Source: an uncultured cyanobacterium
Lineage (GTDB): Bacteria; Cyanobacteriota; Cyanobacteriia; Pseudanabaenales; Pseudanabaenaceae
Direction of reading: 5' to 3'
DNA: 64,000 nucleotides
Assembly (NCBI GenBank): GCA_963703315.1
Contig: OY969811.1
Coordinates: 1,312,001 to 1,376,000, forward strand
Each line of letters begins with the position of its first letter. Positions within the stretch are counted from its first letter, which is position 1. Shown one piece after another: positions 42,001-48,000 of this stretch. The position numbers were made by a program.

Positions 42001-45000
42001 AATTGGTTACATTGTGCAAGTTTCTGTAGATAAATTGTAAAGCTCAACAAACATATTGTTAATATATTTATTTTAATTGATCTATAGCAATTACGACACT
42101 TGTGAAACTCTATATATCTATAGGGTTACTCAAACAAGCAGACTTGTTTTGAGTAAAAATACTTGCAAATTGCTGATATATTGATTGTTGTAGAGTCTTA
42201 TATTTTCTTTAAGAACTTATTATTTTGTACTTGATATTCCCCAACACATCTATAATTAGAGATGTGTTGAAATAAATAAATTTGCGCTATTTAAAAACAC
42301 AACTTAATTAGGTAATTGTTCAACTCACAAATCTACAGCCGTTAATTTAAAAAATACATTTTTAGATTAAGAGAAACTATCTTGGGGTGATAGAAAATCT
42401 GTAAAGAGTTATTTTGTTTTCCAGAAAAATCCACTTAAGGAGTATTTATGGCTCTCGATCCTCAGGTCTTCATGACCACCATGGAAACACGGATATCTTT
42501 CACCGCCGCAGATAAAGCTTTGCTAAAAGCCAATGCAGCGTGGGGGAATTCGATCGCTAGGCAAATGGCAGAAGTGTTTTACGCCTACCTTGCGCGTGAT
42601 CCAGAAATGAACGCTATTTTAACTGCCAAAGAAGGAAGAATGCACCGTTTAAATGAAACTTTCGTCGAATGGTTTGGCGAAATGTTTACGGGTATGGATG
42701 ACTGGGGGAGCGCTTATGCCGCACGTCGTTGGCGTATTGGCTTAGTCCATGTCCAGATTGGTATTGGACCACAGCACGTCGTTCCAGCAATGGCAACTGT
42801 CGTCAATGAAGTGGGGAAACAACTCAAGTCAGCAGGACTGGCTGAAGATCTAAGAGATGCTTTAGGACGCATTTGTATGATTGATCTTGCATTTATTGAG
42901 CAAGCCTATGTCGAGGTCTCTTCTCAAGCGGTTTTACGCGAGACGGGATGGACTGAGGCACTATTCAAACGCATGATTTCTACAGGTGCGGCAAGCATGA
43001 AATAGAAAAAGATTAATTCTTGAAAATTTTGGAGGCTATATATGCGTGCAGAACTTGGCGAATTTAGCAGTATTGTTTGTTTCAAAGCCATAGTTACTGG
43101 GGCTGAAGAGGCACTGGGTGAAAAGGCGGCAATGATCACGCTGATCGCCGCAGGTCGCGCTCGTGGTAAACAACTTGCAGAACAGCTTGGATTAAAAGGT
43201 GTGGGTACTGACCATGAACACCTAGTTCCCCTGCTCCAAAAGGCATTGGGTAAAGATGGAACGAGACTTTGCATTGTAGACAAAATTGAACAAGACGGTG
43301 CATTAGTGAGAGTTTACTGTCGAGAAACAATTTGTTCGGCTGGTGAACCTGAAGGTTCTCCTCGCAAACTGACCTTCACCCTAGGCGCAATCCAAGGAGT
43401 GATCGAACAAGTTACAGGGGAACGTTTACGGGGTAAGCAAACGGAGTCCGTTTTGCGTGGTGGTTCCCATGATGTCATTGAGTTTGAAGTTATTGGATAA
43501 TTAATTTCCTCTTCCTCAAACTCCACCGTATTTACAGACAATTTACAATAATTCAAAACAAGGAAAAAGAAATGAGCATTAACGTTGCGAAGTTGGAAAG
43601 TATTTTACAAAATTTGGTCACTAGTACTAGTGATGTACAGGGCGCAGCACTTGTGTCTCCCGATGGGCTACCTCTAGCCTCAACTTTGCCAAGTGGCATG
43701 GATGAAGAACGTGTATCAGCAATGTCGGCAGCAATGCTCTCATTAGGTGAACGCATTGGTAATGAGCTAGCTAGAGGTGGCATCGATCGCCTGTATGTAG
43801 AAGGTGATAAGGGCTATGGCATCCTGACTAGTTGCGGGGAAGAGGCTGTTTTACTAGTTTTGGCAAGCAAGGCAGCAAAACAAGGTTTATTGATGTTAGA
43901 AATTAAGCGTGTCACAAGCGAACTTAAAGCAGCACTTGCCTAAGTTGTTTGAGTATTCATCCCCAGTCACGGTTTTAAGTTTGCTTACGGCAAAATCAAA
44001 ACCGTGACAACAGTTCAGATTTTAGGGTGACAAAGGGAAGGGACAAAAGAGATTTATGGAAATCATGAGGTTGGTTGTGGCTGGTACTGTTGGTGCGGGG
44101 AAATCAACTTTCATTCGGACTGTGAGCGAAATTGATGTTGTCGATACCGATCGCCGTGCTACAGACGAAACAGCAGAAATAAAACACAAAACTACGGTAG
44201 CAATGGACTTTGGTAGATTAACCTTTGGTCCAGATATGGCTTTACACATTTATGGAACCCCCGGACAGCAGCGTTTTGACTTTATGTGGGATATTTTGAT
44301 CCGTAAAGCCCATGCATTTATTTTATTAGTAGCGGCACATCGTCCCCATGAGTTTCGTTATGCCCGTCGCATTCTCAGTTATATGAATCGGCGCGTCCAA
44401 ATTCCTTACATCATTGGGATTACGCACATGGATTGCGAAGGTGCTTGGTCAAGTGAGAATATTAAACTAGCACTAGGATTTGTCGAACAAAAGGATCAAC
44501 CACCCGTAGTGGTTTTAAATGCAGAAGAACGAGATACTGTCATTCAGGCGATTGTGGCTCTAGTGCAGTACTATATTGCAAATCAATCCGTTGCGTGATT
44601 GTGAGCATCGATCATTATTGTTTTTAATTGATCTTGTTAGGAATTACAGCTATTCTCAGCTATAGATTTGGGCATTAACTCTCTGGTTTACAGTTATGGC
44701 AATTACAGGCTCTTTATCCGAGTTCTCTCTCCCAGAGATATTCCAGTTTTTAGATCAGGGACAAAAAACTGGAATATTAACGATTAGAGATCCTCAAGAC
44801 TTGCGGACAGGCAAGCCATTTTTACGTCATATCTGGTTGCATAGTGGACGGGTAGTAGCTGCGGGCGATCGCCTCGACAATCGGGGTTTAACGAGATTGA
44901 TCGAACAAAGGGGCTGGATTACAGAAGCAAATCGTTCTCAAGTAGAGCAGTTAATTCAAGAAAATATCCCTTTGGGGCTAAATCTCAAAGCATTGGGAAT

Positions 45001-48000
45001 ATTACAACCCGATCAACTGAAATTATTATTTAGCGTACAGGTGCTAAGACAGGTCTGTTCTCTGTTTCAAGTTGAGACAGGACAATTTCGCTTTGATGCC
45101 AAAAGTGATTTACCCAAAGCGGAAATGACAGGGTTGAGTTTGCCTGCAACAGAAACAACGTTAATGGGGTTACGCAGTCTCAAGGATTGGACAGTTTTAC
45201 AAAGTAAGTTGCCTGACACCAGTTCGACATTATTTAGGCTTGGTAGTGATGAGCCACATTTACGTTTAGATGCCAGTGAGACGCAAGTACGTGGACTTGC
45301 TGATGGTTCCCTAAACCTTAAAAAAATAGCGGAGAAATTACAAGTTCCTTTACCTAAACTTCAGCAAATTGCATTTCGCTTGATTGTCGTTGGGCTAGTA
45401 GAAGAAGTACCTGATATTGATGTGGGTATGGCAATAAATAATGATAATAACTCCCAAGAAATTGAGGGGGATACTAGTGGGGCAGTGATGAGTTCTTCGG
45501 CGAGAACTGAGATTAGTAATTCATTTTTACAAAGCCTCGTAGGTTTTTTACAACACAAAGTGTAGTTATAGAGTGGCGGCGCGAAGCGCTGCCACTCTAT
45601 TTTCAGCATAATACCAAAACTAAAAATGGCATAGCCATTTTTAGTTTTGAAAACCCTTACGGAGTTTGGGTTTTAATTCACGAAAGTGTGACAACACTTT
45701 CGTGAATTGGGATAACGGGAATGACGACAGGTATATTTTTGTAGTAGGTTTACATTTGTAAAACAGTTTTTGGGTACGACATTGTCACTTCAAGGCAAAA
45801 GTATTGCGATAACAGGTGCTTCAGGCACGATGGGTAGAGCGTTAGTAGCTGAGCTTAGCAACCGAGGGGCGCAGATCATTGCTCTAACGACCTCGCCTAA
45901 TGCAACCTTTGATATTAACAACCAAAAAGTGGAAGTCCTAACATGGCAAATCGGTCATGAAGCAGACCTACGCGATCGCTTACACAAAGTTGATATTCTC
46001 ATTCTCAATCATGGCATTAATGTATTAGGCGCAAGGGATTCGGCATCTATTTATCAATCCTATGAAGTGAATACTTTTTCGGTTTTCCGTTGGATTGATT
46101 TATTTCTGGAAATAGTCGCGCAATCTCAAGATAAAGCCAAGAAAGAAATTTGGGTAAATACTTCCGAAGCCGAAGTTAATGCGGCGCTGAGTCCATTGTA
46201 TGAGCTATCCAAACGGGCGATCGGGGATTTGGTGACATTGCGCCGCCTTGATGGTGCTTGCACAATTCGCAAATTGATTTTGGGACCTTTTAAAAGCGAT
46301 CTCAATCCCTATGGTGTGATGTCTGGAAAGTTTGTGGCTTGGGCGATCGCTACTTTAGCCCAATTGGGTTTTCGCGATATTATTGTTACCATTAATCCAA
46401 TTACCTTCATTGCCTATCCTGTTAAAGAATTTTGGCGATCGCTTTATTTTCGCGTATTTTCTCGCCCTCAACCATAGAACCGATATGAATCCCGCATTAC
46501 AAACAGAAATTTATCAGTTTATTCGTGAGATTGGTCAAAAGGCGATTCATCTGAGAAAGGCAGGTTTTCAAGTTGATGAAAAAGGCTTTGATGATTATGT
46601 AACCAATGTTGATCGCGAACTTGATCTTTTACTGAGTCAACAGTTTCAAGCGTGGTTTCCCAATGATGTGGTGATTAGTGAGGAAAATCCGCGATCGCAG
46701 GAATTATGGAAGCAATATTCAGAACTTAAGCAAAAGTACTGGTTTATCGATCCGATTGATGGTACTGATGACTTCATTCATGGTCGTGAGTTCTATTCCG
46801 TGATGGTGGGCATCTTAGAAGCATTTCAACCTGTATGTGGTTGGATCTATGCACCAAAGAGCGATCGCCTTTATTTTGGCGGTACTGCCATTAATGGTCT
46901 ATTCACGGTTACTAATGGCAATGTCCCTGAAGTTCTACATCCTGTACCACCAATTGGGACTAGCCGCGATCGCGTGATTGTCAGTAAAAAAGATGACATC
47001 GCTTATGGGGATGCTATTCGCGCCGCCGTTCCCAATGTCGAGTTTTATAGTCTTGGTAGTTTTGGCTTAAAGGTAATGGAAGTAGTTCAAGGTCGAGCTA
47101 GTGCCTATATCTATCTCAATCGCCGCGTTAAGCTCTGGGATACCGTTGGTCCTTTAGCGATCGCTAAAGCGGCAGGGTTAGTATGTTGTGATCTCACAGG
47201 TCGAGAAATTGGCTTTGGTTTTGATGATATTGATCCTGAGAAGTTAACTCATAATCAAGTAGTCGTGATTGGTTGGTCAGAGTTTATTGATGGATATCTG
47301 GAGGCGATCGCCCAAGAACTTACCGCAGTTTCCGATCAAAAGAACCAAGAAAAATTTTAAAAGCGTTGCGAAGCAACGCTTTTAAAATTTTTCTTGGTTT
47401 GGGTTTGAGCGCAAAGCGCTGTAGCAATTTCGAGATATAGCCATAAATAGCCATAAAGAGAATAACGGCGCTTTGCGCCGTTATTCTCTTTATAAAGATG
47501 AGATCGGCTATTTAGCTGATGCAAAAATCATGCTTCTTTGAGAAGCTACAAATAGCAACATAGATGTTTCGTTAAGCCCATTTGTAGCGAGATTTGAACT
47601 TACAAGTTTAAGTCTCGCTATTTTTGTTGATATTTCTATCAATGTATCTATTCAATGCAATAGATGTTTATTTGTGGTTATTTATTGCAAGTAAGTATAA
47701 TAGCATAAACTAAAAGACCTAGTCAGAAATTTTTGCTTTTATGGATGTAACCCTTATTCGTCAACTTGTATGGCTAGACTATCGATTAGCTCTGCTATTT
47801 CTAGTATTTATCCCTTTTGTACTTTTAGTTTGGGCTTTTCGGACTAAGAGTGAAGCAATTAAGCGATCGCTGATTCTCTATTGGCGCGTAGCCAGTCTGA
47901 TGTTGATTACTATTTATTTGGCGATCGGTAGCTTAGGCATATCTTTTATATCGGGCATTATTGCCGAGATTTTAATTGTGTTAGCACTTTGGTTCTGGCA

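Follow-up and report, generated by a model that had tools for sequence, protein, structure and literature searches.

We propose, with a probability of about 55%, that the five adjoining genes described here belong to a GTPase cassette in which a roadblock protein would be platform and regulator of a group-5 MglA-type GTPase, a PATAN-domain protein its partner, and a stand-alone sensor globin and a V4R protein interchangeable inputs. The roadblock, group-5-type MglA, and PATAN genes make up the core, the globin and V4R genes are optional, and the cluster is not a fixed five-gene operon.

The locus

The window, that is, the whole 64,000-nucleotide stretch of DNA that was analysed, carries five intact ORFs at 42448–45565 on the + strand (Table 1), as an earlier note on this DNA had stated and as ORF and Pfam checks bore out. 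The spacers between the ORFs measure 36–112 bp, a spacing that suggests co-transcription. Pfam searches detected Protoglobin (E 7e-19), Robl_LC7 (1.5e-19), ATP_bind_1/Ras (3e-15/1e-6), and DUF4388 (7e-28) in four of the products, while the gene 2 product itself had no match. By tblastn, each of the five genes is single-copy in the genome. The fold of the roadblock–GTPase spacer had a z value of −2.66, and 2 of 200 shuffled sequences folded equally well. Scans for terminators (4 sites vs. 3.1 expected) and promoters (11 vs. 10.2) stayed at chance level.

Table 1. Features of the cluster and its flanks, in window coordinates
Feature	Position	Strand	Basis or remark
AT-rich intergenic region, divergent NACHT gene to cluster	41526–42447		AAGGAG ribosome-binding site, 42437–42442
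S-family stand-alone sensor globin, 185 aa	42448–43005	+	Pfam Protoglobin
Gene 2 (P0002), stand-alone V4R-family protein (predicted), 152 aa	43042–43500	+	Relatives and fold
Roadblock/LC7 (MglB/CvnB-like) protein, 123 aa	43572–43943	+	Pfam Robl_LC7
Stem-loop in roadblock–GTPase spacer	43965–44009	+	Spacer fold −28.5 kcal/mol
MglA-family small GTPase, group 2–5 type	44056–44598	+	Motifs, Pfam; group 5 by context
PATAN/DUF4388 protein (P0005), 289 aa	44696–45565	+	Pfam DUF4388
Short terminator-like inverted repeat 3′ of last gene	45573–45592	+	Not beyond chance

Core and optional genes

Gene content and order were compared in 42 GTPase-centred cyanobacterial loci. The roadblock gene was present in 38 and the PATAN gene in 35 of these; the globin alone was found in 15, V4R alone in 10, both in 10, and neither in 7, that is, each sensor stood without the other in 25 loci and V4R was missing from 22. 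Twenty-one gene orders were recorded, and the order of the window occurred once. The "conserved five-gene operon" of the earlier note holds for 11 of the 21 GTDB loci retrieved with gene 2 as query, mostly from Pseudanabaena, but not for the phylum-wide sample with its single occurrence, nor for the 5 of the 21 GTDB loci that lack the globin despite 5.5–6 kb of upstream DNA. Similarly, the reported presence of gene 2 in 9 of 51 cyanobacterial genomes has to be replaced by 25 of 301, three of them with stops inside the match. The gene 2 family is broken in several genomes and has three copies in locus L019.

In the 301 genomes searched, the globin lay within approximately 3 kb of the GTPase gene in 25 of the 27 genomes having this globin clade, and in one of the two exceptions (L154) it was kept beside a roadblock gene. 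Ten further globin copies and three V4R genes were distant from any module gene. Among the V4R genes, 18 of 28 in the survey, 22 of 24 in GTDB, all 3 on plasmids, and all 5 in metagenomes adjoin a roadblock gene; the corresponding values for the globin are 15 of 36, 0 of 12, 3 of 4, and 17 of 30. In the window and in all 12 GTDB loci the neighbour of the globin is V4R, not roadblock. The PATAN gene is adjoined by V4R in 7/28 and by the globin in 6/36 survey genes. Two loci (G324 and G315) have the order V4R–roadblock–globin–roadblock–GTPase–PATAN, and similar arrangements occur in L012, L116, L145, L184, and L200. The distances in G324 and G315 had suggested V4R loss, which was rejected when V4R was found upstream beside the second roadblock gene. 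Sensor plus roadblock is a duplicated unit, and the sensors are often paired with a roadblock copy of their own, an arrangement reported here as new. A hemerythrin gene directly follows the module in L134, L137, and L140.

Outside the cyanobacteria, the module was found in Thermus (with globin) and Deinococcus (with V4R), and both sensors accompany it on contigs whose V4R proteins group with entries from Chloroflexota. The sensors are strongly linked to the module, and the linkage is seen again in Chloroflexota, Thermus, and Deinococcus, with the reservation that a mobile cassette can pass on linkage and that related genomes are not independent. Mirror-tree correlations within the cyanobacteria (0.40–0.73) reflect shared ancestry and single out no partner.

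The globin

The closest solved relative of the globin is Tlr1989, as previously noted (PDB 8h17, E 1.5e-81; the match spans 184 residues and takes in the tail), and Pfam Protoglobin covers residues 16–157. The globin-coupled kinase 5ohe was matched at E 3e-9, with H101 and Y45 aligned to its His and Tyr. These two residues, which we take to occupy positions F8 (proximal His) and B10 (distal Tyr), are invariant in 38 globin sequences, and together with its sensor-globin sequence they place the protein among the single-domain sensor globins. Homology to 8h17 suggests that it binds haem and gas. An extra C-terminal tail (~155–185) is conserved, and G167 and L172 are invariant in module globins down to 20–25% identity; a conserved tail common to the module globins would be a new feature. 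An Atlas search with the tail gave only scores under 0.8. The locus number of Tlr1989 directly precedes that of the roadblock gene tlr1990, leaving no room for V4R, whereas in the window V4R lies between the two.

The gene 2 product

Judged by sequence and model, the gene 2 product is a V4R protein and not a TRAPPC3, because its relatives match Pfam V4R, its model ranks V4R proteins first, and it has no Bet3 tail. Four of 47 relatives matched Pfam V4R (PF02830, best E 1.3e-11), and the product aligned over its full length with a Pfam-positive member (probability 99.9). Its Atlas neighbours are V4R, and its profile matched MJ1460 at E 0.012; among the members of alignment A1 no match to the TRAPP Pfam families was found. 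The model (pLDDT 91.6) shows the fold shared by V4R, TRAPPC3, and H-NOX. Both the missing Pfam match and the TRAPPC3/V4R-type fold reported earlier were confirmed. The placing of TRAPPC3/Bet3 in the first 11 ranks was not: in Foldseek, Bet3 and PoxR tied (4.9e-6, 5.9e-6, and 5.9e-6), and in VIA-align PoxR, DmpR, and MJ1460 ranked first, V4R proteins reaching Z 14.2–15.5 (PoxR 15.5, rmsd 3.4, 143 aligned) and TRAPPC3 13.3–13.4 (rmsd 2.8–3.2, 138–143 aligned).

The glycine pairs G38/G42 and G115/G119 in helices 2 and 5 are conserved, as in the V4R fold. The zinc-cysteine cluster, which is common but not universal in V4R, is eroded in P0002 (C98, L110, S136, and D144), while Chloroflexota-type members have cysteines at all four columns, which we assume from the motif to be zinc ligands. 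P0002 stops at the last strand (median 4 residues past it in 77 rows), and the Bet3-type C-terminal GEF extension is absent from it. In Bet3 this extension reaches into the GTPase and is the source of the GEF activity (PMC3747258). Sequence continuity, fold ranking, and the lack of the tail thus settle for V4R a choice that had been called undecidable. The V4R tree, a quick version with long-branch warnings, was not used for the order of events. A hydrophobic molecule is the candidate ligand.

Roadblock, GTPase, and PATAN proteins

The roadblock protein matched PDB 7f8m (E 3e-25), presumably a Thorarchaeota roadblock, and CvnB5 (3leq, E 9e-11). It resembles 7f8m and 7yh1 far more closely than MglB, which its profile matched only at E 0.13. 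The entry 7yh1 is in the accession list of a paper on Asgard archaea (PMC10933270).

The GTPase has the motifs G1 GTVGAGKS, G2 KTT without an intrinsic arginine, G3 GTPGQ, and G4 THMD, and G67-T68-P69-G70 and T46-T47 are invariant in 37 sequences. MglA groups 2–5 are without the catalytic arginine (PMC4316618). Compared with the [NT]KxD consensus, G4 keeps T and D and has H for K, as in most cyanobacterial members, and it is not the NxFD of group 2. GTPGQ in G3, a threonine replacing the G2 arginine, and coupled MglB and PATAN genes in a cyanobacterial host agree with group 5, to which the protein is assigned by context, the tree made here being one without named group 1–5 references.

The PATAN protein consists of a PATAN domain with an MshEN-like helical insertion (~63–123), a winged helix (167–240), a disordered linker (243–273), and a conserved C-terminal helix (275–287). 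No Foldseek match at E ≤ 0.001 was found for it. The winged helix best matched GATOR1 (8fw5_B, Z 10.1) and SEA (8adl_S, Z 9.8), with an unrelated peptidase tied (9.4). The MshEN likeness consists of the motif and a weak match (5htl, E 0.5), and c-di-GMP binding is not claimed because this match is weak and the RLG motif has not kept its first arginine. Since the hydrophobic moment of the C-terminal helix is modest (mean 0.38), membrane attachment through it is a guess. A fusion search over 8000 scored candidates of 392–2000 aa, a range outside which V4R–roadblock fusions (~270–390 aa) fall, gave one match, P0374, in which V4R is fused to a PATAN domain; it is a single sequence on one contig and possibly a read-through.

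Comparison with known systems

The MglB–MglA–PATAN core was tabulated by Wuichet and Sogaard-Andersen in 2014 (PMC4316618, Table S2) for cyanobacteria, Chloroflexi, and Aquificae, including T. elongatus tlr1990, numbered beside the globin Tlr1989. These group 5 systems have the same three core genes and the same G2/G3 motifs; their neighbourhoods were called variable, and no group 5 system was described as tested (PMC4316618). The words "globin" and "V4R" do not occur in the main text or in the supplement files searched (all but file 1). No passage in the literature searched pairs globin or V4R genes with MglB–MglA–PATAN; Makarova 2006, Koonin and Aravind 2000, and Mathur 2023 may mention the neighbourhood.

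Actinobacterial conservons (CvnA-D, CvnE/F) share with the cluster a roadblock protein, a group 2–5 GTPase, a third partner, and optional stand-alone ligand-binding accessory inputs (PMC13343842). Their accessories, however, are P450 or GAF proteins and their third partner is DUF742, instead of globin/V4R and PATAN, and their accessory sensor has the kinase rather than the roadblock protein as its binding partner (PMC13343842). A conservon reading was rejected, as neither the CvnA histidine kinase nor the DUF742 protein CvnC was found among the five genes and the two flanking genes scanned. HGbRL of Methylacidiphilum combines a haem globin with a roadblock domain, and its genome also encodes an MglB–MglA pair, but it is a fusion with an HGbI-like globin, reported as restricted to one genus and not part of a GTPase operon (PMC4476040). 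The Myxococcus/Thermus MglA–MglB polarity modules (group 1) resemble the cluster in their roadblock platform and small GTPase and in a link to type IV pili, which for the cluster is a proposed one, but their MglA has an intrinsic arginine and TVPGQ in place of KTT and GTPGQ. TRAPP and Asgard proteins share the V4R/TRAPPC3, roadblock/longin, and small GTPase folds (PMC10933270, PMC2253512); their GTPase is of Rab type, whereas that of the window is of MglA type, and gene 2 groups with V4R. In MK-D1, the GTPase genes are generally not in operons with roadblock or TRAPPC3 genes (PMC10933270). The description of the cluster as the Asgard TRAPP trio in one operon was overstated: gene 2 is a V4R, judged by the continuity of its sequence, it is absent from 22 of the 42 loci, and V4R–Bet3 homology was published as early as 2008 (PMC2253512).

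Proposed mechanism and alternatives

The cluster would thus be a known kind of GTPase switch with two optional sensors, one of them probably for oxygen. A roadblock dimer would act as platform and regulator of the group-5 MglA. The globin would contribute a haem input (O2/NO/CO or redox) and V4R a hydrophobic-ligand input, and both most likely dock on the roadblock protein and alter how it acts on the GTP/GDP cycle. The PATAN-winged-helix protein, probably membrane-held via its C-terminal helix, would pass the signal on as effector or as exchange factor, a role proposed for CvnC. The idea of a haem/gas-controlled GTPase gains support, because the globin is linked to the GTPase in 25 of 27 genomes, the haem residues align, and a globin–roadblock fusion has been published (PMC4476040). 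The proposed cassette is favoured by the constant core with its variable sensors, the globin–GTPase and V4R–roadblock linkage, the duplication of sensor together with roadblock, the recurrence in other phyla, the conserved globin tail, the hemerythrin neighbours, and the precedents of HGbRL and the actinobacterial accessory sensors. Globin–V4R adjacency, the orphan globins and V4Rs, the V4R–PATAN fusion, and the kinase-bound accessory sensor of the actinobacterial systems count against docking on the roadblock protein.

In this organism the output would most likely be to control type IV pilus activity or the direction of movement, a view that we hold only tentatively and would not favour over all else together. 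Six PilB/PilT-family ATPases in the genome and the binding of PATAN to PilB1 and PilC (10.1101/2021.06.11.447907) speak for it. Against it, the PilB1 result concerns PatA-type PATAN-REC proteins, and BLASTP gave no alignment between P0005 and a PatA-type PATAN. In other phyla, the output may lie with adjoining c-di-GMP enzymes, kinases, or transcription factors. Deinococcus is not known to be motile yet has the module, therefore pilus motility cannot be the general output.

Alternatively, the sensors might target the PATAN protein, or one sensor might signal to the other (globin to V4R), with roadblock and GTPase as a parallel switch to the same output. The P0374 fusion, the V4R–PATAN and globin–PATAN adjacencies, and the globin–V4R adjacency in the window and the 12 GTDB loci speak for this, but the fusion is one perhaps spurious sequence, sensors occur singly in 25/42 loci, and sensor and roadblock duplicate as a unit, which leaves this reading unlikely. 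Co-regulation without contact, in which the globin would be a scavenger or store of O2/NO that is merely co-expressed with the GTPase module, is quite unlikely: although ten orphan globins exist, 7/42 loci have the module without either sensor, and the hemerythrin neighbours may be carriers as well as sensors, the linkage outlasts 21 rearrangements and several phyla, and neither the conserved non-globin tail nor the roadblock co-duplication is expected from co-expression alone.

A TRAPP-like complex, with a V4R dimer placed at the flanks of the roadblock dimer in the manner of TRAPPC3 on the longin dimer and serving as structural subunit or GTPase exchange factor, would account for the shared fold, for the zinc cysteines lost as in TRAPPC3, for the strong V4R–roadblock adjacency, and for a roadblock protein that resembles 7f8m and 7yh1 far more than MglB. 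It is improbable, considering that V4R sensors score higher, that the sequence is continuous with Pfam V4R, that the extension giving Bet3 its GEF activity is missing, and that a gene missing in 22/42 loci, broken in several genomes, and triplicated in L019 is more what one would expect of a sensor than of a core subunit. The notion that the GTPase is a GPN-loop-like maturation chaperone loading haem or metal into globin and V4R draws on ATP_bind_1 being its best Pfam match (E 3e-15); we rejected it as very improbable, since the GPN motif is absent, the motifs fit MglA groups 2–5, seven of the 42 loci have no client, and Tlr1989 was solved as a single chain.

Significance

In its boldest form, which we regard as a long shot, the cassette would be the bacterial equivalent, encoded in an operon, of the roadblock/longin machines that control GTPases in eukaryotes, with an Asgard-like roadblock hub, a zinc-less V4R dimer docked as TRAPPC3 is on longins, a PATAN winged helix in the role of the NPRL2-type one, and a haem globin switching the GTPase by O2; if true, it would amount to a gas-gated small GTPase, and its five proteins to a model for the beginnings of Ragulator/TRAPP/GATOR-type regulation. 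Returning to the cassette of roadblock, group-5 MglA, and PATAN with interchangeable sensors, it supplies candidate inputs to group 5 MglA, namely a putative O2-binding globin with a dedicated tail and V4R, and it suggests what stand-alone sensor globins and V4R proteins may do. The parts are small and soluble and one has a solved close relative, thus gas control of a Ras-like GTPase could be tested in a purified system. If V4R binds the roadblock protein, this would be a functional V4R–roadblock–GTPase link in prokaryotes and would bear on the origin of TRAPP. The cluster hints at an unstudied route by which chemical signals may be fed into a bacterial G-protein.

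Composition of the five-gene cluster

The cluster is a genuine feature of the window: its five intact ORFs all point in the same direction, the gaps between them measure 36, 71, 112 and 97 bp in gene order, and each gene was found by tblastn in one copy in the 4.57 Mb genome. The Pfam matches were, in gene order, Protoglobin, none, Robl_LC7, ATP_bind_1/Ras and DUF4388, so that gene 2 again lacked one, as the earlier note had reported. The nearest named relatives belong to Pseudanabaena, in six loci of which the NACHT gene still lies beside the cluster. The low-GC stretches of the window are possibly acquired DNA, and the stem-loop could be a means of setting roadblock excess over GTPase.

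Features of the window and of fetched loci (L numbers)
Feature	Position	Description
Low-GC stretches	window 2001-10000, 18001-32000	GC 31-38%, about 42-45% elsewhere
NACHT gene	window 39324-41525	minus strand; NCH2 C-terminal domain; divergent from cluster
AT-rich spacer		0.9 kb, 5′ of cluster; divergent NACHT gene beyond it
Five-gene cluster	window 42448-45565	globin, V4R, roadblock, GTPase, PATAN
Stem-loop	window 43965-44009	in roadblock-GTPase spacer; z -2.66
PATAN helical insertion	window 44882-45064	residues about 63-123 of P0005 (PATAN protein); like degenerate MshEN motif pair
PATAN winged helix	window 45194-45415	P0005 residues 167-240; closest structures GATOR1/SEA chains, Z 10.1, 9.8
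Tandem V4R genes	L019:5470-7215	three, diverged, then one roadblock; globin absent
Globin array	L177:5539-7644	Thermus brockianus plasmid; one roadblock amid three globins, then PAS-GGDEF-EAL and HD-GYP genes
Hemerythrin gene	L134:7438-7863, L137:7460-7870, L140:7469-7936	directly 3′ of PATAN gene in related globin-bearing loci; Pfam on L134 only
Helical carotenoid protein (Carot_N) gene	L112:3349-3879, L169:5169-5720	closely 5′ of module or lone V4R; Pfam on L112 only
CZB domain gene	L186:298-708	stand-alone; 5′ of distant-clade globin

Tlr1989 was found again as the closest solved relative of the globin (8h17, E 1.5e-81). A tail of ~30 residues past the Pfam domain is conserved in 38 cyanobacterial sequences, orphan copies included, and its G167 and L172 are invariant even in Thermus module globins of 20-25% identity. 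The GTPase has no intrinsic arginine. The PATAN protein was modelled (pLDDT 85.9) as PATAN, helical insertion, winged helix, disordered linker and terminal helix, with a terminal motif present in 55 of 58 sequences. In a profile search the insertion matched MshEN (5htl) weakly (E 0.5), and an unrelated clostridial peptidase domain (Z 9.4) ties with the GATOR1/SEA chains for the winged helix. We take these chains to be NPRL2/Npr2. Winged helices of this type are described in passages of PMC3521125 and PMC3747258.

Gene 2 encodes a V4R protein

The earlier note had placed TRAPPC3/Bet3 in the first 11 ranks for gene 2 and held TRAPPC3 and V4R to be indistinguishable. Neither point held: Foldseek with the predicted structure (pLDDT 91.6, pTM 0.87) gave a tie of Bet3 and PoxR, PoxR led by Z score (15.5, then DmpR 14.5, MJ1460 14.2, TRAPP subunits 13.3-13.4, BcsD 12.3 and H-NOX 8.8), and sequence relatives likewise favour V4R. 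The 1760 candidates included 1530 relatives, and 109 cluster representatives were obtained; Pfam V4R was matched by 4 of the 47 aligned sequences (best 1.3e-11) and a TRAPP family by none. Archaeal V4R MJ1460 topped the profile search of the PDB (E 0.012), and V4R occurred in 27-33% of the members of Atlas neighbours. Across 77 V4R rows the cysteine motif erodes from four Cys (Chloroflexota type) to two in most cyanobacteria and Deinococcus, and C98 alone remains in the window's protein. V4R-Bet3 homology is already in print (excerpts of PMC2253512). In Bet3, a lengthened C-terminus confers the GEF activity (part of PMC3747258), whereas the gene 2 protein ends with its last strand.

The operon is modular

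Conservation of all five genes in this order, as claimed earlier, held in 11 of 21 GTDB loci retrieved with gene 2 but in only one of 42 GTPase-centred loci, L139, which may be the same locus as L021, as their GTPases are identical in the tree. Among the GTDB loci, globin was absent from L009, L012, L013, L015 and L019 despite 5.5-6 kb of upstream DNA, the upstream side of L010, L011, L014 and L016 was cut off, and the GTPase was missing downstream in L007 and L011. The 42 loci represent 44 of 46 GTPase matches (excluding a 30% match and that of the window itself) and show 21 gene orders; roadblock was present in 38 and PATAN in 35, with globin only in 15, V4R only in 10, both in 10 and neither in 7. 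In a sample of 301 cyanobacterial genomes, the GTPase was found in 36, V4R in 25 and globin in 29, 27 of them with near-full-length matches to the window's globin clade; the genus-level search (48 genomes) gave the GTPase in 34 and globin in 25. Four Pseudanabaena genomes (G306, G310, G321, G338) carry two module types, whose GTPases share 93-95% and 68-70% identity with that of the window; in the named loci the second type has V4R and no globin.

With adjacency defined as the next module gene on the same strand within 700 bp, V4R adjoined roadblock in 18/28, 22/24, 3/3 and 5/5 genes and globin in 15/36, 0/12, 3/4 and 17/30 (cyanobacterial survey, GTDB, plasmid and metagenome sets, respectively). 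Where roadblock is duplicated, the additional copy usually lies next to a sensor: the order V4R>Rbl>globin>Rbl>GTPase>PATAN was seen in two of five fetched stretches (G324, G315), while V4R was not seen within those of G328 and G309 and is broken in G321. Extra copies beside a sensor also occur in L012, L116, L145, L184, L185 and L200, L143 being the exception.

The linkage is genuine; it outlasts rearrangements and recurs in other groups. In 25 of 27 genomes with this globin clade, the GTPase and a globin copy are no more than about 3 kb apart, the exceptions being G297 and G261 (globin adjoins roadblock, no GTPase found). A pair of unlinked genes would be this close by chance in about 0.1% of 5 Mb genomes, related genomes not being independent. 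On Deinococcus plasmids, all three V4R matches examined out of eight showed winged-helix gene>GTPase>roadblock>V4R, and a fourth locus lacked a sensor; Thermus plasmids have DUF4388>GTPase>roadblock>globin or three globins around the roadblock. For a distant globin clade (26% identity), 32 metagenome loci, including several near-duplicates and many short ones, contained roadblock in 20, GTPase in 17 and all five kinds of gene, differently ordered, in 4. V4R proteins of three of these loci (L200, L201, L210) group with Chloroflexota entries. Against linkage, ten globin copies and three V4R genes were found on their own.

Discussion

The mechanism we favour most (probability about 0.55) is one in which globin and V4R would be interchangeable sensors feeding into a roadblock platform; MglA's GTP state would be affected in this way, and the PATAN protein would hand the signal onward. 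Precedents are HGbRL, in which globin and roadblock are fused (excerpts of PMC4476040), and the accessory GAF/P450 inputs of actinobacterial G-protein systems, although these bind the kinase (parts of PMC13343842). In one sequence, P0374 (543 aa, without a locus), this V4R is fused to a PATAN-winged-helix region of the PatA type; this sole PATAN-V4R fusion would point away from roadblock as the partner, though it is possibly a read-through product. A further precedent is the binding of PilB1 and PilC by the PATAN domains found in PatA-type regulators (sections of 10.1101/2021.06.11.447907). Six matches each to DUF4388 and to the PilB/PilT family occur in this genome. Outputs may differ between lineages: PAS-GGDEF(-EAL) genes follow in Thermus, and in Deinococcus the genes that follow encode a GAF kinase or GAF-LuxR protein. 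The oxygen theme is strengthened by hemerythrin directly following the module in three related loci.

A TRAPP/GATOR-like reading, with V4R docking on a roadblock hub like TRAPPC3 and the PATAN winged helix in an NPRL2-type role, appears improbable. In favour of an Asgard link are the roadblock, much nearer to 7f8m (E 3e-25) and 7yh1 (2.7e-7) than to MglB (0.13), and the tied GATOR1/SEA match. The trio that the earlier note brought from Asgard archaea into one operon amounts to shared folds and not to a known Asgard operon, since MK-D1 GTPase genes generally do not share an operon with those for roadblock, longin or TRAPPC3 (portions of PMC10933270); another Asgard operon combines roadblock, a Rab-like GTPase and DENN (excerpt of 10.1101/2020.10.19.343400).

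By motifs and gene context the cassette core is of the MglA group 5 type, for which Wuichet 2014 (PMC4316618) gives MglB>MglA>PATAN in T. elongatus from tlr1990 on and 38 group 5 rows; the searched parts of its text and supplement mention neither globin nor V4R. The three-gene GTPase core and every domain family are already known. The parts seen of PMC11580455, PMC3791482, PMC5847659, PMC8717448, 10.1101/2024.07.04.601786 and the PMC12955536 reference list hold nothing on the cassette. The literature searched contained no report of stand-alone tail-bearing globins and V4R proteins that, in three phyla, are paired with copies of roadblock and serve systematically as putative optional inputs. 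With the cassette it becomes possible to test directly whether a gas controls a Ras-like GTPase.
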